64,000 nucleotides of DNA from Eledone cirrhosa (Eukaryota). The position numbers and the translations under genes are program-made. Shown here piece after piece: positions 2,960-36,377 of the stretch (position 1 is the first letter of the stretch; each line of letters opens with the position of its first letter). The notes under the pieces were generated by a model that was not told the DNA's origin, did not search any database, and worked only from the letters and a program-made list of their open reading frames with translations. The stretch spans positions 19,778,001 to 19,842,000 of the forward strand of contig OZ024743.1 in assembly GCA_964016885.1 (NCBI GenBank), read 5' to 3'.

Positions 2960-3035
2960 TATTCAATGATATTAAATAAATGGAAGGTATATTTATAAAA
3001 CCATATTTATTCTATTATATATATTTCAAGGGTAC
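2960..3035 (-). mobile_element. Truncated arm of fold-back family A
   Basis: tattatatatatttcaagggtac matches tattatatatatttcaaaggtac at 35831-35853. It starts directly after (TA)n at the same tattcaa position. Confidence 0.55.
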
Positions 3036-4001
3036 CAAATTGTCTATTAGACGTCTATAGGCATTTCTTCGCATTAAAGACAAGATACCCGGCCTAGGGC
3101 GAAATAATAACTAAAGTAAGTTATTGGGATACAAATTGTCGGTGGAGAAAGAGAAGGACATGTAAACAGACACGATGGGTGAGGCAACGTAAAGAGAGGA
3201 AAAAAGGAAAAAATCAAGTCAATAATTCATTTCGAACATAAGAACGGGTGAGTTTTGACGCGGGTGTGAGCGAGAAGAAAGACCGCGTACAGTGTTGGAC
3301 GATGGAGGAAGTGAGAGAGAGGGTGAGTGGCAGAGAGTGAGTGTGTGAAAGTGCGGGGAAGAGGCTAGCCGAGAGAAGGTGACTAGCAGAGGAGGTGAGT
3401 AAAAGTAAGAGAGAGAAGGAGCGAGAGAACGGGGAGAGAGAGAGGATAGCAGCAAGGGAAGAGAAAAAAGACAGGTCACAGCAGATGGGGAAGAATATAT
3501 GAATCAAAATGGCGTGCTGTGTTGTTGCAATTAAGTATAATGAATAGTGGTGATAACAGTGTCGGGAGGTTTACATTTAAATGAGACTTTTCTATTCCAG
3601 ATCTTGATAAGTGTTCAATGTTTCTTTCTGCTATTTCATTTGTCCGTGTGAACTTTTTATAACACTAAAGTCGATTTTGAATTAAATGCAAAGGCCAAGT
3701 GATATGAGACTTCCTACATCATCTGAATGAGCTCATATATGTCAGTGCTGTTTGAATAATTCTAAGTTGGCAGTTGCAAGGTGTTTTTTTTTGTTTCTAA
3801 TAGAAGAAGGAAAACTAATTGATAATCTAAAATTTAATTGGTTGGTATAGTTGTAAACGAAAAGGTTTAGAAATACATTTTAGATGTTCTCAATACATGC
3901 ACACCTGGTGTTAACATTGCTAGTATGTATGTATGTATGTGTGTATGTATGTATATATGTATGTACGTGTGTGTATATATACGAACGTATGTATGTATCT
4001 A

Positions 4002-26844: not shown

Positions 26845-28275
26845 TACAGACCCACACTCCCCCCGGCCTGAACTCTCCACCCTTATTCCTTTAGCGTTCG
26901 ACCACCCCCTCCCCCCACACTTATCCCCCACTAACACCACTAACACACCCCTCCTGTTCACCGCCCACCCCACACTAACAATACTAACACCTCCACTCCA
27001 CCCCTCATCTGACCACCCTTCCCCAACTAACATACTAACATCCCTTCCCTCCCCTCTTCTCCTCCTCCCCCCTCCTTATCACACGCACACACGCACCCAC
27101 TTACACCACCCACCCCACACGCAACTAACATCACTAACACCCCCCCCCCAACCCCACGCACACGTACCCACACACCCTCGTACACCACCAACTCTACACA
27201 CCCTACCACCACTAACCCCCACTCACACCTGCATTCAACCCCTCCCCACCTCCCATATACTAATACCCACTAACACCTCTTCACCAAACTACACACACAC
27301 CAGTACACCACACTCCCTCCATAGAACCACACACACCCTTCTCTCCCCGCTCCACCCACACCCCCGTCCACACTCACTCATCCCACTAACACCACTACTA
27401 ATACACACACACACACACCCTCCTCACTCCAACTTTCACACCTACCCATCCTCGCCCCCTTACCATTCCACCGACTGCTGCTATGCCCTTCTGACCACCT
27501 CCCAGCACCAACAGACCACAGCACTCCCACTGCTGACCACTTCCTGTTGCGCGCGCACCCCACATCTCTCCTCTTCCGACCACCGCTTCATGGATTACCC
27601 ACACGCAGAATTTGACTTAACCAATCCTCCCAACATCCTTGGAACTTACCAACTTTTCAACCATCCTCTTACGTCATCACCTATATAACTCACCCACACA
27701 CACACCCCCAAAAAAAAATTTTTCTCCACACGCCACCCACACCCACAACACGCTTAAACCCCACACACACGTGCTTCCCACCACATATTTACACCCTCAG
27801 CCTCCTGATTCCTCTCCCCCCACCCCCCTATCCACACATACACACACACACACACACACGCACACCTACACACACACACCACCTTCAGCCCTCCCCGCTC
27901 GGACACCCCGTCTCCCTCTCCCCACTCCACCCGCCACCACCCCTACTCACCCCACACCCTTCCACCACCTGTTTACCCCTCCCCTTTTAATTTCAGTTTA
28001 TTTTGATCATGCCTTTATTTTTAAATTTTCTCATTCCTTGTATTTTGATCATGCTTTATTTTTATTTTTTAACTTTATTTGTTAATTTTTCATTCGCACC
28101 GTTTCCTTTCGCTATATGTCTCTCCACCACTCCCCTACACACCTTTTGAACTCTGTTCCCACACACTGTCCCCCACCTACCCCCCACTCTCCTAAGCGTG
28201 AAATTAATAAACATTTATTGTACTGCCTCTCTGTTTTGTCCCTGTTCATATTTTTCCATTATATATATATATATA
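26673..28275 (-). mobile_element. Possible non-autonomous Helitron with a CA-rich low-complexity body
   Basis: The minus strand ends in gacccaaagggccacgggtggtCTAGt (hairpin plus CTAG). The other boundary is a guess. Confidence 0.3.
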
Positions 28276-28280
28276 TATAT

Positions 28281-28710
28281 AACCAAAAGTTTAACAAGGT
28301 TCATTGAATAATCAATGAATAAAGTTTTACAATAGATTAGAAGCACTCAACAGTAGGGGTTTCTGGAGTTATTAATATTACTTCAAAATATTAATAAATA
28401 TAGACATTCATGTGATCAAATATATTTTATTATACATATTTCAGAGGTACTGAGCTATTTCATCAGTACGTTCTCATCAGATAAAATAAATTGATGTCTG
28501 ACATACCTCAACTGTGCTGATGGTTCCATTCCAGCCCTGGCAGTTCAATTCCAGTCTTGACTGCCAAGACTGGAATTGAACCATCAGCACAGTTGAGATA
28601 TGTCAGACATCAATTTATTTTATCTGATGAGGACATACTGATGAAATATGTATAATAAAATATATTTGATCACATGAATGTCTATATTTATTAATATTTT
28701 GAAGTAATAT
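28281..28710. mobile_element. Fold-back element, family A copy 1: arms 28375-28710, tail 28281-28374
   Basis: Inverted arms between (TA)n runs, homologous to 35775-36210 in the opposite orientation. Confidence 0.9.
28423..28488 (-). ncRNA. Type I minimal hammerhead ribozyme
   Basis: UAUUUUAU-CUGAUGA-gaacGUACUGA...UCAGUACcucu-GAAA-U-AUGU-A-UA^AUAAAAUA, with an 8-bp stem I. The base of stem II is imperfect. Confidence 0.7.
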
Positions 28711-29494
28711 ATATATATATATATTACTATGGTGTGTGTGTGTATATATATGTGTGTGTGTATATGAGTGTGTACGTATATATATATGTGTGTGTGTGTA
28801 TGTGCGTGTGTGTCTTCCATTTTCCTTCCCTGTCTCCTCTCTCTATCTCTTTCTCTCTATCTTTCTCTCTCTATCTCTTTCTCTCTATCTTTCTCTCTCT
28901 ATTTATGACGGTACGTCTGTGTGATTATTTGTGGCGTTTGGCTGCATGAGTTTCTGTGTCTACGTTTTAAAGTCTAGTACATACCATTGAAAATGTATTT
29001 CTTCTTCTTTTCTGCCTGCTCCTCCTCCCCACTCCTCCTCCGCCTCCTCCTTCTTCTTCTTCTTCTTCTTCTTCTTCTTCTTCTTCTTCTTCTTCTCTTT
29101 ACCCCTAATGGTTTTGATGTTCCAGGTTCAAATAGTTACGGTTTTCTCCCTTTTTGGGGTTTGGGGATAGGCAATCTTTTTGCGAACATCCCACGTCTCC
29201 CAAAACAGGTTACAGGCTCATTTCCAGTTTTTACAGCATGAGATGGAGACTGCAATATATTTTTTCAAACAAACTCATCTACGTAATGCCTGAACACATC
29301 CCTACCTAATGCCAGAACACATCTTAACGTGAAGGAAGATGCGGTATGAGTATTTTTGTTGCCTCTACCAATAATGCAGTTTGTTGGTCTTATTCGCACC
29401 AATTACCATTTTGATACTTTTCTCAGATCTATTCACTAAATATCCTTCTAGAATGCTATTCTTCTTCTTCTTTTCGTATCTTCGAAGCATGTGG

Positions 29495-29950
29495 TTATAT
29501 GACAGTTTCCCATTTCTTTACACTGTCCTTTGCATTATTATTAAATTCTGCGAGATCTTTTAAGCTGCACTGGTTGGGTAGTAGAGGGCAAACAAGGCAG
29601 GGCTGCATCGTATGGTCCACCTCTCCGCATTCGCAGATGGTTGGGCCGGTCTTGTAGCCCCATCTGGCCATAGCAGCTTTTGATCGCCCCATTCCTGTTC
29701 TCAGGTGGTTGAGTGTCTTCCACTGGACCCATGGTGCTTCTGAGCCAGGAGGGAGGGCTTCAGAAGGGGGGATTCCCATGTCAATAGGAGGGGAGTCATT
29801 CTCTAGCTTTCTAGTCCATAGCTGTAGTCTGGTTTCTTCCTGAGATGTTGTTACAGGCTGAACATGGCTGAGGAAGCTTCTCCTTGACTTCAGTCGTTGG
29901 GCCGGAGGTTCAGGTCCGTGAAGGAGGTGGCGTTCATCACTGATAGCCTT
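29495..29950 (-). pseudogene. Vingi/Ingi-clade LINE 3' end
   Basis: WKTLNHLRTGMGRSKAAMARWGY..CECGEVDHTMQPCLVCP (C-terminal zinc knuckle), followed by a (GAA)n-like tail. Confidence 0.7.
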
Positions 29951-30229
29951 TGTATGAATCCTATTGTATGACTATAATATTTGAGCATTACTTTGTACAA
30001 TAATAAATTCTTGCTTTATTATTCATTTGCAAATATTGTTGGATTTTTGTTAGGATGTGTACGTTAATTTCTAAATAGTTAATACTATTTCCCTGGTTGC
30101 CTCTTCAAATGAAATATTCATTTTGATCTATCGATTTTGTCATTAGCAACGACGCATTTTTCATCCTCTTGTTCCAGCATTCGGAAATGACCCAAACTAC
30201 GTGTGCATTGCTATCTAGTTAAAATAGAT

Positions 30230-31350
30230 GATGCCGTTTCGACAGATTTCCCTCCACCAATTACGGCCAGCAGCATATTCCTCATATTTTGATTGTTGTA
30301 TTCTAATATGCCTAATTGAAGAAGGGGCATTCCTACGTTTCGCACTCCCACCTGAAGTTGCCCATAAGTGAGAATTTCCGACAGTCTTTCAGAAATTTAT
30401 CCTAGCAACATGGGCAGCCCTTCTTAATTGAGTCTTTATCAAGAAGTTATTTATGCTTTGTATATCACATTCATGAAACAACTCTTCATTAGAGTCTCTG
30501 TCTTTCCATGTGAAACCATAAATATTTTAATGATATCTCTTGTGGACTAGCCGTTTGACATATATTTTCTATATGATGTCCACGATTCAGACCCATACTG
30601 CAATTTTGACACAACTGCATGATAAACTGAGGTTTAGGTTTTCAAACTCAGATCTCTCTCATTCCATACCTTTGCTCGCAGCTTTCCCAAAGTATCACTA
30701 ATTTTGGCGATTCTATCTAATATTTCATCAAATAAAGAAGAGCTAGAATTTATTTTACTCCATAACTATGAGAAAGATTTCACAAGATTTTGGGCCTAGG
30801 TAATATTATGCCTCTTCATTAGATAGCATCTGATTTGTTTACACTTATTGTTAGGCCACTTTGCTCACAGAGGAAAACCAGCTTACAATGTTTCTACTAC
30901 CCGCATCATCTACAAACAATAAGTCTAAAAGCATTTTCGTTCTATAAAGGGTCTCTGTCTTAAATGTTTGGTTGTTGAAGATCCCATCTGATGTTCAAAG
31001 TCCAGACAAAAGACCATTATTATAGTGTTTGAAGGCGGTGGATTGGTAGTATCGGTAGAGCGTCAGACACTCTGCTTTGGAGTATAGAGTTGTGGCCCTT
31101 TACGTTCTGAGTTCAAATCCCGCCGAGGTTTTCATCCTTACGATGTCGATAAAATAAAGCACCAGTAATGCATTGGGATAATTGTACCAAAAGGAGAAAC
31201 AATTATTATAGTGTTTGAAGGCACACTCTAGTAACAGTAGAAAGGTACGCAGCAAAGAAAACATGGGCCATTATGAACCCCTGCTTTGTCCCATGTTTAA
31301 CATGAAAAGGATCTGAAGCGGCATCCGACTTAAGAGAAGCTTGCATGTTT
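30230..31350 (-). pseudogene. Highly degraded RTE LINE with a SINE insertion
   Basis: Minus-strand motifs LLFVDDA, FGKLRAKVWNERDLSL, LQYGSESW and GRPCC. Confidence 0.5.
31033..31205 (+). mobile_element. SINE copy with a TSD of about 21 bp
   Basis: attattatagtgtttgaaggc is duplicated at 31016 and 31202. Confidence 0.85.
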
Positions 31351-31817
31351 TCAGAGATTTCCTGTCAGAAAGGAATTGAGTCGTTAACATCAAACGATCA
31401 CTCACCACCAGAAGAACGTATAACGTTGCCCTTTCTCGTCACACTCTCAAATTTCAGGCAAACGAGTTTCGCCTAATGCTGCTATGTCTACCGCAAATGT
31501 GAGACTAAAATATATTAAGAGGGGATCCTGCAACCCACCTACAATTTTTAAAATCTGGTATTGGAACAGATGTTGTTATATTTGGGGTTGGACTAGTGTC
31601 TCAAACATAAATACACATTTCTTACTATAGCATTGTACTGTGTTGTTTAATTTATTGTTTCCGTTTGCTTTTTCCATATATATTCATGAAGTTGCGTGTG
31701 TGCATGTATGTATCTAACTAAAGATGTCATGTTAATGGAGTCATGTTTTACGCACACACGCACATAGATATATCCCCCTCAACCACACCCGTATATATGT
31801 ATATATACATATATATA

Positions 31818-31856
<39 letters not shown>

Positions 31857-31905
31857 TGGGAAAGTAAGAAATCTGAGAATAGACCGTTAAAACATGTTTA
31901 TTTAA

Positions 31906-31941
<36 letters not shown>

Positions 31942-31943
<2 letters not shown>

Positions 31944-32862
31944 AAGGCGGGTAAAATTCCCGAGATCCATGGACGAGTTCTCTCCAGCGGTCTCTGTCCC
32001 TCATTATCGCTGCCATGTCCTGCATCTCCAACAGACCAGTGTGTGTCCTTAGGGCATCAACATACGTTAACCTTGGTATTCCTCTTCTAGTGTGTCCATG
32101 TAGGGGCTCCCAAAGGAGTACTGAGTGCAATGTCAACTCTGGATGTCGGTGAGCATGTCCAGCTAACCTCAGTCACATCCTGATGTTGAGGAGGATATTA
32201 GAGGGAGCTAGAGCAAAGTGCCTTCCTGCGGTCATGGTTTTCATTGACTTTAGGAAGGCCTTTGATTCTGTGGACCCTTACTGCCTGATGAAGATCTTAC
32301 AGGCTTATGGAATCCCCAAGAAGATAGTGGACCTGATATCACTGCTCTACACCAACACCAAAGCCCAAGTCATTACACCTGATGGGATGACAGAGTTCTT
32401 TGAGATACTGGCTGGAGTGCTCCAGGGAGATACATTGGCTCCCTACCTTTTTATCATCGTAGTCGACTATTGTATGCGCCTTGCACTGGAGAAACACCAG
32501 GACACTGGCTTTACTGTAGCACCGGCTCAGAGCAGGAGAGTTAGGGCGAAAAAGGTACCGGATGCTGAATTTGCCGACGACATAGTTTTGGTGACAAATA
32601 CAGTGAAGGAGGCAGAGGATTTGATGCGGGAGGTTGAGACTGTGTCGATGAGTGTGGGGCTGAGAATGAATGAGACTAAAGCAAAATATCTGGTAGAGAA
32701 TGTTGAGAAGCCAGAGGGGATCACTAATGTAGGCGGGAAGCCGCTGGAATTGGTTGAGGACTTCCTGTATTTGGGAGCAAAGATTGGGAATACGGAAGAT
32801 GATGTGGTTGAGAGGAAAGACAAAGCCTGGGCGGCGTGCCTCAGCTTGGGATCGGTTTGGAA
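31942..32862. mobile_element. RTE-like LINE insertion with a 5' inversion
   Basis: Minus strand 31942-32170 encodes the C-terminus (LAGHAHRHPE...RGIPRLTYVD...DRDRWR..SREFYPP*). Plus strand 32173-32862 encodes the RT core (FIDFRKAFDSV, GVLQGDTLAPYLF, FADD, FLYLG). Confidence 0.85.
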
Positions 32863-32914
32863 GTTGCTCCAACTACTACAGGCACTATTTCTACCTTTAT
32901 TATTATTATTAATA

Positions 32915-33520
32915 GGGCGGTGGATTGGCAGTATCGGTAGAGGGTCGGACGCCATGCTTTCCAGCATAGCTACGTCCCTTTATGATCTGAGTTCAAATCC
33001 CGCCGAGGTTGACTTTGCCTTTCATCCTCACGGGGTCGATAAAATAAAGTACCAGTAATGCACTGGGTAATTGCTGGCCTTGTGCCTAAAGTAGAAACAA
33101 TTATGTGTATGCGGTAGATGGCAGTATCGGTAGAGGGTCGCACGCCATGCTTTCCAGCATAGTTACGTCCCTTTACGATCTGAGTTCAAATCCCGCCGAG
33201 GTTGACTTTGCCTTTCATCCTCACGGGGTCGATAAAATAAAGTACCAGTAATGCACTGGGTAATTGCTGGCCTTGTGCCTAAAGTAGAAACAATTATTAT
33301 GTGTATGCAATCTATACGTATTATTGAGGGCGGTGAATTGGCAGTATCGGTAGAGGGTGGGACGCCATGATTTGACGCATAGAGTTACGGCCCTTGCCAT
33401 TCTGAGTTCAAATCCCGCCGAGGTTAACTTTGCCTTTCATCCTTACGGGGTTGATAAAATAAAGTACCAGTAATGTACTGGTTAATTGCTGGCTTGTGCC
33501 AATAGTAGAAACAATTATTA
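32915..33520 (+). mobile_element. Three consecutive SINE copies (32915-33103, 33111-33300, 33328-33520)
   Basis: Three near-identical units separated by duplicated target sequence. Confidence 0.9.
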
Positions 33521-34221
33521 TGTGTATGCAATCTATACGTATTATTGTGTCATTATGTGTGAGTAGGATATCAGTGTGGGTGGGTGTATGTCTGCGGTGG
33601 TGTATGGATAGATAACCGTTTGCGCAACTATAGGAATATCATTATGTAAATCCACAAACCAGGAAATGCTGATATACGTTTTACTCTATAATTACGCAGC
33701 ATTACTGCCTTTCTGGATATAATAAAATAGCCCACAATTCCTGTCAATATACATCAAATTTTTCCTATCACATTCTCTATCACCATTTAGCAATGAAAGT
33801 AAATGTTTTAGACATATATTGATTTTCTCCCTTTATGTTTTTGTTCTACTTCTGTCTGCGACAGATAATTATGACTACTATACCTTCATATATAAACGAA
33901 GAGATCCTAGATATAAAGCAAGATATCCAATAGCACTGGGTGACAATTATGAATGTATCTTTACTAAATTAACTAATTCTAACCAGATTATTTACAGAAT
34001 ATAACAATTCAGATGTTTTTAGAGCCATTTGTTCGCTGTGGTTGTATCCGCACCGATTGCTTGTGACTTTTGTTTTTCATGTTTATTTTATATCGATAAA
34101 CTATATTTTTTTTTTATCCACAATGTGATTTTACTTATGTTATTGTCTTCCTTTTGACAATAAGTCTCACACACAGAGCGAGAGGGAGAGAGAGAAAGAG
34201 AGAGAGACAACCAAACACACA

Positions 34222-34252
<31 letters not shown>

Positions 34253-34255
<3 letters not shown>

Positions 34256-34317
34256 AGTTCGGATCTAGCTGTCGAAACGGCCGCAGCTCATCTGTCGGGG
34301 TCCTGACTCTTTTCCTA
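34253..34317. mobile_element. Minimal fold-back family C copy
   Basis: gtcgaaacgg..agctc..tgtcggggtc..ttttcctat is shared with the 36227 and 56918 copies. Flanked by (TA)n. Confidence 0.65.
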
Positions 34318-35063
34318 TATATATATATATATACATACATATATATGTGTGTGTATGTAATGATTTCTAAGATTGCCTTTATATTATCAAATATGACTAA
34401 TACACTAATTCCATCCTTCCCATTTTATTTCGCTTGGGTTCTCTCCCCTCCTTTATCCGAAACTAATGTTTTTTTTTTCTTTCCGCTCATGCCCATGACC
34501 AGAGTAGAACGAAATTCGCTTGTTTGTTCATAATGACCACATTTCATTTGATTTAGCGTCGTGCTTCCCCATGTTCCATCTTGTTTGTTTTTTGTTTTTG
34601 TTTTTTTTTTTGCTTTCAGTTGAACGACTGATTGTTTTAACTTAAGACAGTATCCTCAATTACTAAGTGCCAGTTATCTCATCTGATGTATGTGTTTGCT
34701 ATTCTCTTTCTCTTTCTTCTGCAAATTGTCTCATGTAATCTAATGATTACATTGCATCCTGTTATTCGTCACCTGTCACTAAATATTTTGCCTCATTACT
34801 AACCCATTGTCCTATTCTTTGATTTTCGAACAGTGTATGTGATAATTCTCCCAGTTACAGTGGTACACTTTGGACATTACCATTCTTAATATTATAAAAA
34901 TGAACACATTTTATGGGTGCCAGTGTCAAGAATTGGTGGCTGGAGATCTGATATTGTTGATTTGTTCGGATTCTGTTGACTGCGTCCTTCTACAATTACA
35001 TATATACATGTGTGTATGCCGGTGTGTGTGTGTGTGTGTGTGTGTGTGTCTATGCGCGCGCGC

Positions 35064-35095
<32 letters not shown>

Positions 35096-35745
35096 GTAGA
35101 ACAATGCCAGATACGTTAGGTATATTATTACATCAAGTTTCACCATATATAAATCACAAATTAATCAGCAGCTATTATCCTCCTTAAGTAAAAACTGTAA
35201 GCTGATACAACTTCACCCTTCCGATATTTTGAATTTGAATTAAGAGGCAGTTACTGCCTTAATATCAGCGGTATAGTGAGTTAAGGTGACAGTTTTAGCT
35301 TGAGGAACCAAAGAGTTGCTAGTTGTGCAATTCAACTGCAATTCAACTACTAACATTTAAATAGCAATCTAAATGGTACCTATTCTATTGTGCTGTAACG
35401 ACATTTATATTTATTTTATTTTATTTATAAATATTTTTGTTGGTACGCACTGACATACAAGCTGAACTCGGGATGCGTCGATGTCAGGTTTATACCATCC
35501 TTTATACCTATACTGATCCTTCTTGTACATATATCACTACTCTGATTTGTCGTTTTCCCGCAGCCTTTATATATATATAATTCGTTTTTGAATTTGTTTT
35601 GCGAGATTTCTTATCTGAAAACATGTGTTCAAACAGATATTGTTATACTTTGAGAGAGTCATGCTGCCAATAAAAACATAGAGTATTAAAGTTACTATAG
35701 ACTACCCAACTAAACACCCCAACCATAGATTACCCGTACTAAACT

Positions 35746-35782
<37 letters not shown>

Positions 35783-35822
35783 CAAAATATTAACAAATGA
35801 AAAATATACTCATAATCAAAAT

Positions 35823-35894
35823 ATATACTTTATTATATATATTTCAAAGGTACTGTGTTGTTTTTTCAGTACGTCCTCATCAGACAAAATATAT
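35823..35894 (-). ncRNA. Type I minimal hammerhead ribozyme (left arm)
   Basis: AUAUAUUUUGU-CUGAUGA-ggacGUACUG..CAGUACcuuu-GAAA-U-AUAU-A-UA^AUAAAGUAUAU. Confidence 0.75.
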
Positions 35895-35995
35895 GATTTT
35901 ATATATGACCACTACGGTCTTGATTATTCAATTCCAGTATTGGCAGTACTGGAATTGAATAATCAAGACTGTAGCGGTATGCCATATATCAAATC

Positions 35996-36067
35996 ATATA
36001 TTTTGTCTGATGAGGACGTACGGAAAAAACAACACAGTACCTTTGAAATATATATAATAAAGTATAT
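35996..36067 (+). ncRNA. Type I minimal hammerhead ribozyme (right arm)
   Basis: CTGATGA at 36007-36013, GAAA at 36045-36048, palindromic AUAU loop, predicted cleavage after 36056, and an 11-bp stem I including GU pairs. Confidence 0.72.
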
Positions 36068-36226
36068 ATTTTGATTATGAGTATATTTTTCATTTGTTAA
36101 TATTTCGAATAATATTAAAGACTCAAGGAAAACTTTACTAGTTGAGTGCTTCTAATGTATTGTAAAATTGTATTCATTGAGTAATCAACGAACCATACTA
36201 ATCTTTGGTTATATATATATATGTAT

Positions 36227-36377
36227 ATAGGAAAATAGTCAGGACCGCGACGGCTAGTCGAAACGGTCGGAGCTCAGCTGTCGGTCCTTTTCCTATTACC
36301 CACTCTACTATCTTAAGTATCGAGTACTCTGGTGCGTTATCGTCCACTGGGTATCTTACCACGATTTCTTTGTTCTT

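Follow-up and report, generated by a model that had tools for sequence, protein, structure and literature searches.

A non-coding palindromic family in (TA)n repeats of Eledone cirrhosa carries the Penelope-like insertion signature, with arms that are likely two separate reverse transcripts

We analysed a 64,000-nucleotide (nt) stretch of the Eledone cirrhosa genome (assembly GCA_964016885.1, 3.0 Gb; contig OZ024743.1, forward-strand positions 19,778,001 to 19,842,000), hereafter the window, which is AT-rich and crowded with microsatellites and retroelement debris. It carries two copies of a short non-coding family, copy 1 at 28281-28709 and copy 2 at 35776-36210 (window coordinates), both of which are lopsided palindromes with a single tail of 95-96 nt and with (TA)n on either side. 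An inverted copy with a one-sided tail is the already known signature of Penelope-like insertions and not the mark of a new kind of element, and the arms are likely two complementary DNAs (cDNAs). We think it probable that each copy is a retroposed insertion into (TA)n, and that its arms are two separate reverse transcripts of the same RNA and not the product of fold-back.

The two window copies turn at the same sequence, TTCAATTCCAGT.TTGGCAGT (direct sequence reading). The short arm of each ends in ...GAA(G)TAATA adjoining (TA)n (at 28709 in copy 1 and at 35776 in copy 2), and the long arm continues for a further 95 or 96 nt to ...TTTGGTT, which also adjoins (TA)n (at 28281 and 36210). The initial annotation, made from the letters of the window, had claimed this shared apex, short-arm end and tail length, and the claim holds. 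The copies lie in opposite orientations, with the tail first (left) in copy 1 and last in copy 2. In copy 1 the arms pair as 28370-28443 with 28642-28715 (74 nt, 97% complementarity) and 28456-28544 with 28560-28648 (89 nt, 93%). In copy 2 they pair as 35775-35907 with 35983-36115 (133 nt, 98%) and 35908-35942 with 35944-35978 (35 nt, 91%). Arm matches opposite arm between the copies at 67%, so that, as the annotation stated, the arms within a copy resemble each other far more closely than those of its counterpart; the overall identity of the two copies is 70.6% by BLAST and 77% by MAFFT (309/402 aligned bases). Not mentioned there were a 16-nt partial re-copy at the apex of copy 1 (28544-28559) and a 19-nt deletion in its short arm. 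The fragment at 2960 that the annotation placed with the palindromes does begin at (TA)n and belongs to the same family: it is 75% identical to positions 4-100 of the copy 2 arm (~2960-3055) and scores 51 bits, above all of 100 shuffles (best, 39.7).

Searches of the genome with each window copy gave 2796 and 4208 first-look candidates, of which 40 were scored in each case; samples throughout are the 40 best-scoring candidates per search, with no full census. Nearly all scored family matches span the whole unit of 428-435 nt, which speaks against chance as the source of the pattern. They are 90-94% identical to copy 2 and 81-92% identical to copy 1, and because of these differing identities we assign the two copies to two subfamilies. 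The tail is the part best conserved between the subfamilies (82/94 positions). Across the 57 loci of a flank survey (60 from both searches less 3 duplicates), the 3' end of the element, ...TTTGGT(T/C), is constant, and (TA)n of at least three units was found at the 3' flank in 54/57, at the 5' flank in 49/57 and at both in 46/57. Target duplications are unreadable inside (TA)n. Some copies are 5'-truncated (L013, L033, L042, L050 and L054). At one locus, L083, the 3' end of the family adjoins a flank other than (TA)n, so that (TA)n must be the target and not a part of the element. Thus, from the constant 3' end, the 5' truncations and the location in (TA)n, we conclude that the family is a non-coding retroposon targeting (TA)n and not a cut-and-paste element. 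As a separate observation, the 3' flanks of L083 and of an unrelated family copy, L069, contain the same short sequence (...AAAAACCACAGACC...), which suggests that another repeat is a frequent neighbour or target.

Because full-unit searches favour complete units, the ends of the arms were examined in a sample found with the tail only (60 loci, 30 per subfamily, including both window copies and the local duplicate pairs L199/L200 and L203/L204). Positions are given in monomer coordinates, counted from the A of ACTGCC (m1), with which the tail-bearing (sense) arm begins where the centre is complete. An inverted arm is present at 44 of the 60 loci. Its outer end lies at one site adjoining (TA)n (m166-178) in 37/44, and its inner end lies no more than 17 nt from m1, or past m1, in 34/44. 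The tail-bearing arm begins no more than 13 nt from m1 in only 20/44, and otherwise starts anywhere from m20 to m162. At 20 of the 44 loci, more than 15 nt of the inverted arm have no counterpart in the sense arm, and the reverse case occurs in 6. Since the inverted arm often exceeds the tail-bearing arm, simple fold-back fails for many copies, and the asymmetry of 20 to 6 makes random decay of the palindrome centre an unlikely cause. Complete copies of the window type account for 11 of the 60 loci, and truncation is therefore common. Of the earlier proposal of a programmed unit rather than random truncation, the defined ends stand.

The number of tails is informative as well. Among 40 loci found with the palindrome alone, one tail is present in 37, two in 2 (L004 and L015) and none in 1 (L172). 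Independent choice of start sites could not yield such dominance of the mixed form, and thus the two starts are coupled, one end using the 3' terminus and the other using the next site. In minimum-free-energy folds, both subfamilies are predicted to form a small AU hairpin, the 3' strand of which contains the internal start site; the 3' terminus falls within the 3' strand of a predicted AACC...GGTT hairpin.

The long arm and tail of copy 1 are 96-97% identical to copies that end at the centre. When L064, one of these copies, was used as the query, the 40 best matches were 96-98% identical. The 30 close relatives of L064 comprise 10 with a common upstream sequence, 4 bare monomers and 16 with inverted pieces, the outer ends of which lie at m170-176 in 14/16 and the inner ends of which range from m1 to m122; this sample is biased to complete sense arms. 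We identified the parent as a non-coding, AT-rich element of ~1.7 kb (L137:77-1783; also L145 and L146), with the monomer, a unit of 264-271 nt, forming its last 264 nt. Copies of the parent element are 5'-truncated and frequently carry inverted pieces. Short templates begin exactly at the first base of the monomer, ACTGCC. At L125, (TA)n is followed by the canonical start of the arm; the inverted arm, 1054 nt long, continues past m1 far into the upstream part, and after it comes a sense copy of only 317 nt. At L140 the inverted arm reaches the first base of the parent and is followed by 325 nt of sense copy, and L217 is similar, with an inverted arm past the apex into upstream sequence. In all three, the upstream sequence of the inverted arm is absent from the sense arm. 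Thus, the inverted arm is an independent copy of RNA made from a fixed internal site, and the usual apex is the end of the usual short template and not a programmed turning point. The sharp breakpoint peaks that the initial annotation looked for are accordingly present at the short-arm end (37/44), but the apex is simply where the usual template has its 5' end.

The parent encodes no open reading frame (ORF) of at least 120 amino acids outside simple repeats. We considered whether it could be a decayed Penelope-like element and rejected this, as no such ORF was identified and blastx against 43 ORFs of 12 Penelope-like loci gave nothing below an E value of 2.5. Short interspersed nuclear elements derived from tRNA (Pol III) have internal A and B boxes in sense orientation close to the 5' end; in the monomer, the 5' end shows by eye a B-box-like sequence, GGTTCAATTCC, but in antisense.

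Relationships among arms were compared in 42 complete units of subfamily 2 (84 arms; at least 86% identity, and covered at least from position 15 to position 430), excluding 13 apex-proximal and 8 outermost positions. The comparison had been set out beforehand in the initial annotation, and the arms do group by locus: an arm's own partner was its nearest arm 34.5 of 84 times, with 1.01 expected. The mean arm distance is 2.9% within a copy, and between copies it is 5.5% left-left, 5.4% right-right and 5.5% left-right, which leaves no signal of left against right. Mirrored changes, present on both arms, occupy 92 of 6204 cells, compared with 1.75 expected if the arms changed independently. Transversions make up 30 of these 92, and thus selection on RNA pairing via G-U intermediates cannot explain the mirroring. 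One-arm variants shared between copies number 18, against a simulated mean of 17.2 under independent mutation; shared mirrored variants number 16, against 10.8 by chance (97.5% upper bound 16), and some occur in 6-9 copies. The majority sequences of the two subfamilies are near-perfect palindromes (342/343 and 148/150 positions), despite their arms being only 81-84% alike.

Clustering by locus, mirrored variants and palindromic majority sequences together establish that the arms are identical at birth: differences that precede insertion are mirrored, and those that follow it are not. The arm clustering, the mirrored variants and the 37/44 outer ends support the earlier suggestion that each insertion produces its second arm afresh and that the template is bounded by defined ends. 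The copies show these ends, a fixed internal start, arms identical at birth and sequence present in the inverted arm only. In the young lineage the nearest-arm test was uninformative, as it has too little variation. Shared apex types were tried as proof of inheritance and set aside. The commonest types reflect a single 9-nt slip between direct repeats, in its two mirror forms, and copies with a common apex type have no other variants in common, which makes this weak evidence either way.

The mechanism that we favour would proceed as follows. Both 3' ends of the cut target would prime DNA synthesis, one beginning at the RNA 3' terminus (...TTTGGTT) and the other 94-96 nt upstream, at an internal AU-rich site that is fixed (...GAATAATA). 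Both cDNAs would extend toward the 5' end of the RNA and would be joined head to head. In the outcome, the palindrome centre would mark the template 5' end, and the single tail would be the stretch between the two start sites. We infer the order of events, the use of a single RNA molecule and the nature of the enzyme. Given this mechanism, we lean slightly towards an endonuclease-bearing Penelope-like element as the source of the enzyme. A bolder version, which is tentative and rather unlikely, is that a reverse transcriptase (RT) complex with two heads makes two copies of a single RNA molecule, starting at two fixed points 94 nt apart, one for each strand of the cut (TA)n. If so, the thousands of genomic copies would be a natural record of the reaction, in which the internally primed copy mostly reaches the first base of the RNA and the end-primed copy is often cut short. 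Two-headed copying would also settle the choice between self-priming and two-ended priming for the inverted repeats of Penelope-type elements, and would mean that the machinery drives a non-coding element without a partner and with a tail three times the known length.

Candidate sources of such machinery are plentiful. A search of the genome for GIY-YIG returned 10596 first-look candidates, and all 150 of the 150 scored passed the cut-off. Intact ORFs of Penelope-like loci carry RVT_1 and GIY-YIG domains. One locus (L188:1149-6318) is itself a palindrome of ~5 kb (98-99%) made of two head-to-head Penelope-like copies, each with an open frame of 551 amino acids ending in the GIY-YIG region.

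A number of observations weigh against copying from two primed ends. The palindrome of L004 (L004:1367-2165; 99%) takes in both tails, the (TA)n and, on either side, 135 nt of flank; two primings cannot make this palindrome, which fits fold-back copying or a later duplication at the DNA level. The flank within it is an arm of an older family copy. L201 and L202, which are on two chromosomes, with unrelated flanks, and are 94% alike, have the same rearranged junction, in which a complete inverted arm is joined to a sense arm starting at m113-114, and L024 and L030 have the same asymmetric centre. These pairs point either to copying of the whole unit at times or to junction hot spots. To have the same 171 nt copied twice requires strand displacement on one RNA or else two RNAs, and the exact ACTGCC start of the usual template does not follow from the model. 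Singleton variants (35 mirrored, 130 on one arm) cannot by their counts alone tell variation that precedes insertion from arm-to-arm conversion.

Others among these observations concern the link to Penelope-like elements. No autonomous partner was identified by blastn and by nhmmer with tail and monomer profiles at the ends of 20 Penelope-like loci (of the 10596 first-look candidates); the only matches, at L153 and L156, come from copies of the family that lie close by but are separate. No hammerhead was found in Rfam at E<=10 on 35700-36300, and the whole window contains no Rfam family at gathering score. A hammerhead ribozyme had been considered, as the arm has CTGATGAG...GAAA and the apex follows AUC in the long parent, and was rejected after the Rfam result and after pairing by hand gave no helix I or III. 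Also lacking in the 60 tail-sampled loci is a tandem pseudo-long terminal repeat (pseudo-LTR), or any upstream duplicate of the monomer on the same strand, with the exception of L076 and L090, which are internally deleted forms. The tail, at ~94-96 nt, is longer than the published 30-40 nt. The family is best filed as non-autonomous, with the insertion signature of Penelope-like elements, membership of which is not proven.

The same two-primed geometry could arise if the enzyme were that of a long interspersed nuclear element (LINE) of this genome acting by classical twin priming, which we regard as unlikely. A young LINE family (L095-L114) often lies against (TA)n, and its 3' ends are 96-100% identical over the best 40 of 1639 candidates. 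The window itself has a copy of this LINE built head to head (31942-33058): the C-terminus of ORF2 (31942-32172, minus strand, 76 amino acids ending in ...EFYPP and a stop) lies against (TA)n and is joined, inverted, to an RT domain on the plus strand (32153-33058; RVT_1, E 2e-19), in what looks like a twin-priming inversion. However, copies of this LINE family end in ...TAG AATAG(A)n (19/19 copies listed), whereas the palindromic family has no A-tail and no likeness to the LINE 3' end. Classical inversion has little overlap, in contrast to the 171-nt duplication seen here. The single junction of the family with a LINE end, at L077, is unique (1/40). This locus, with the end of ORF2, an A-run and the monomer in succession, had raised the idea that the monomer is a LINE 3' untranslated region; it was rejected, L077 being the only such case in 40 scored and 19/19 LINEs ending in AATAG(A)n. 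Two discrete starts and a one-sided tail are, moreover, reported as peculiar to Penelope-like elements (PMC11167929).

We consider it very unlikely that the palindrome with its tail is copied as a unit, in the manner of a miniature inverted-repeat transposable element (MITE) or a hairpin-shaped short interspersed nuclear element, with the likeness of the arms kept by arm-to-arm gene conversion or hairpin mismatch repair and with the odd forms produced by later deletions of the unstable centre. The one rearranged junction in the unrelated flanks of L201 and L202 is consistent with this, as is the asymmetric apex of L024 and L030, where three linked variants are one-armed in L024 and mirrored in L030. 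The singleton counts fit conversion equally well, and most of the top full-unit matches span the unit from end to end. However, one-arm variants are shared at chance level (18 vs 17.2) and the left-left distance equals the left-right distance, and therefore one-arm changes of source copies are not passed on. The 30 copies that are 96-98% alike nevertheless vary in build, and include 10 that are long and non-palindromic and 4 bare monomers. Deletions of the centre should strike both arms equally, yet the excess is 20 to 6, and inverted arms run into upstream parent sequence where there is no palindromic source. The arm-to-arm conversion that the initial annotation offered as an alternative is not needed to explain the data.

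The least probable account is fold-back, or self-priming, in which a cDNA made from the tail to the RNA 5' end snaps back at its 3' end and copies itself, with synthesis ended early when the second (TA)n end of the target pairs with the AT-rich site. The palindrome of L004 looks as if self-copying had run through the tails and (TA)n into the target strand, and small palindromes with shifted centres occur in L086, L092, L079 and L210. Mirrored variants fit fold-back as well as they fit twin priming, and self-priming is favoured for inverted Penelope repeats by Arkhipova et al. (2013, PMC3846280). However, a snapped-back arm cannot exceed its template, and 20/44 inverted arms lie more than 15 nt nearer the monomer start than the sense arm does, while at L125, L140 and L217 the inverted arm, and not the sense arm, carries upstream sequence amounting to hundreds of nt. 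Fold-back, the first option in the initial annotation, is not supported as the main route by these loci. It predicts a fixed inner end, but it is the outer end that is fixed (37/44), and the inner end varies from m1 to m122 in the young lineage. The tail-less palindrome, L172, also speaks against it. We retain two separately primed copies as the probable origin of the arms.

The features of the window copies are collected in Table 1. By eye, two related units of ~60-70 nt lie in opposite orientation at 34256-34317 and 36230-36300, each inside (TA)n. A further element with (TA)n as its target may have left them as stubs, and nothing in Rfam matches them at gathering score. Also by eye, several copies of a ~190-nt repeat with a tRNA-like part (...GAGTTCAAATCCCGCCGAGGT...) are present at 32900-33530 and 31030-31200, three of them in a row within the LINE fragment.

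Table 1. Features of the palindromic family in the window (window coordinates).
Feature	Positions	Strand	Basis
Diverged arm fragment (positions ~4-100); start adjoins (TA)n	2960..3055	+	75% identity, E 2.6e-13
(TA)n flank, 3' end of copy 1	28262..28280	.	Sequence reading
Copy 1 single tail (95 nt); 3' end of the element, ...CTTTTGGTT, on minus strand	28281..28375	-	Reading and arm pairing
Copy 1 tail-bearing (sense) arm, monomer position 2 to ~171	28376..28543	-	96-97% identity to monomer copies L061-L064
Copy 1 16-nt partial re-copy, monomer positions 6-21, at head-to-head junction	28544..28559	-	Comparison with monomers starting ACTGCC
Copy 1 inverted tail-less arm, monomer position 1 to internal start site, with 19-nt deletion	28560..28709	+	L191: inverted arm m1-170
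(TA)n flank, short-arm side of copy 1	28710..28726	.	Sequence reading
(TA)n flank, short-arm side of copy 2	35750..35775	.	Sequence reading
Copy 2 inverted tail-less arm; start TATTATTC (internal start site), end ...TTGGCAGT (monomer position 1)	35776..35947	-	L065: inverted arm m1-178
Copy 2 tail-bearing arm, without the first 8-9 nt of the monomer	35948..36114	+	L065: sense arm from m9
Copy 2 single tail (96 nt), which ends in ...CTTTGGTT	36115..36210	+	Reading and family 3' ends
(TA)n flank, 3' end of copy 2	36211..36229	.	Sequence reading

How the inverted repeats and one-sided tail of Penelope elements form is still unsettled, with self-priming favoured by a genomic study of 2013 (PMC3846280) and extension of both strands shown in vitro in 2024 (PMC11167929). 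In a short, abundant non-coding family, each copy records where each arm began and where it stopped, and the asymmetry of the arms is a genomic argument for two separately primed copies. For annotation, the labels MITE and hairpin gene should both be avoided for units of this family, and the long, near-perfect hairpins that they form within (TA)n are likely sites of trouble in assembly and of double-stranded RNA.

The family resembles MITEs and fold-back DNA transposons in being short, abundant, hairpin-forming and non-coding, with TA-rich flanks. Unlike in those elements, its ends are not inverted repeats of each other (there is a 94-nt tail at one end), it shows 5' truncation with a constant 3' end and no left/right lineage signal, and bare monomers and long parent copies occur in the same lineage as the palindromes.

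Twin priming of LINE-1 is an established mechanism, and Ostertag and Kazazian are said to have described it, with 5' inversions, in 2001. As in our model, two target 3' ends prime on one RNA, at its 3' end and internally, and the two products meet head to head at their 3' ends, in many cases with microhomology or filler at the join. The segment inverted by twin priming overlaps little with the rest, whereas here the arms overlap, with the same stretch of up to 171-178 nt present in both orientations. The internal start of the family is one fixed site and not many, and there is no poly(A). With regard to a LINE partner, the family end, ...TTTGGTT, has no A-run, unlike the AATAG(A)n of the LINE.

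Animal retrozymes and other non-autonomous elements derived from Penelope are likewise short and non-coding, and are presumed to be moved by Penelope-like enzymes (bioRxiv 10.64898/2026.07.22.740005). Those elements are tandem and have hammerhead ribozymes, whereas this family is dispersed and palindromic, with no Rfam ribozyme match.

The differences from Penelope-like elements themselves are that the family has no RT or endonuclease ORF, no sequence link to the 20 loci examined, no hammerhead and no tandem pseudo-LTR, that its tail is 94-96 and not 30-40 nt, and that its unit, a monomer of 264-271 nt, at the same time makes up the 3' end of a non-coding element of 1.7 kb. A hammerhead in the terminal repeat is a feature of canonical Penelope-like clades; it is absent from Naiads, as it is from this family. 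Common to both are a head-to-head inverted copy at the 5' side of the sense copy, an inverted copy that is short by a fixed stretch found at one end only, AT-rich or (TA)n targets and frequent 5' truncation. Non-coding sequences can be mobilised in trans by Penelope-like elements, and the family is also non-coding. According to Craig et al. (2021, PMC8557442), Penelope-like insertions have an inverted 5'-truncated copy with an extension of 30-40 nt at one end, and (TA)n is a preferred target of Naiad. Inverted pseudo-LTRs 37 bp shorter than the direct ones, with a 31-bp tail, are reported by Arkhipova et al. (2013, PMC3846280). In vitro, a purified Penelope-like protein cleaves and extends both strands at AT-rich DNA, with initiation of reverse transcription at two internal sites of the RNA and a tail that corresponds to the stretch between them (Frangieh et al., 2024, PMC11167929). 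The family described here is useful as a large natural data set on the origin of the Penelope-like insertion signature.

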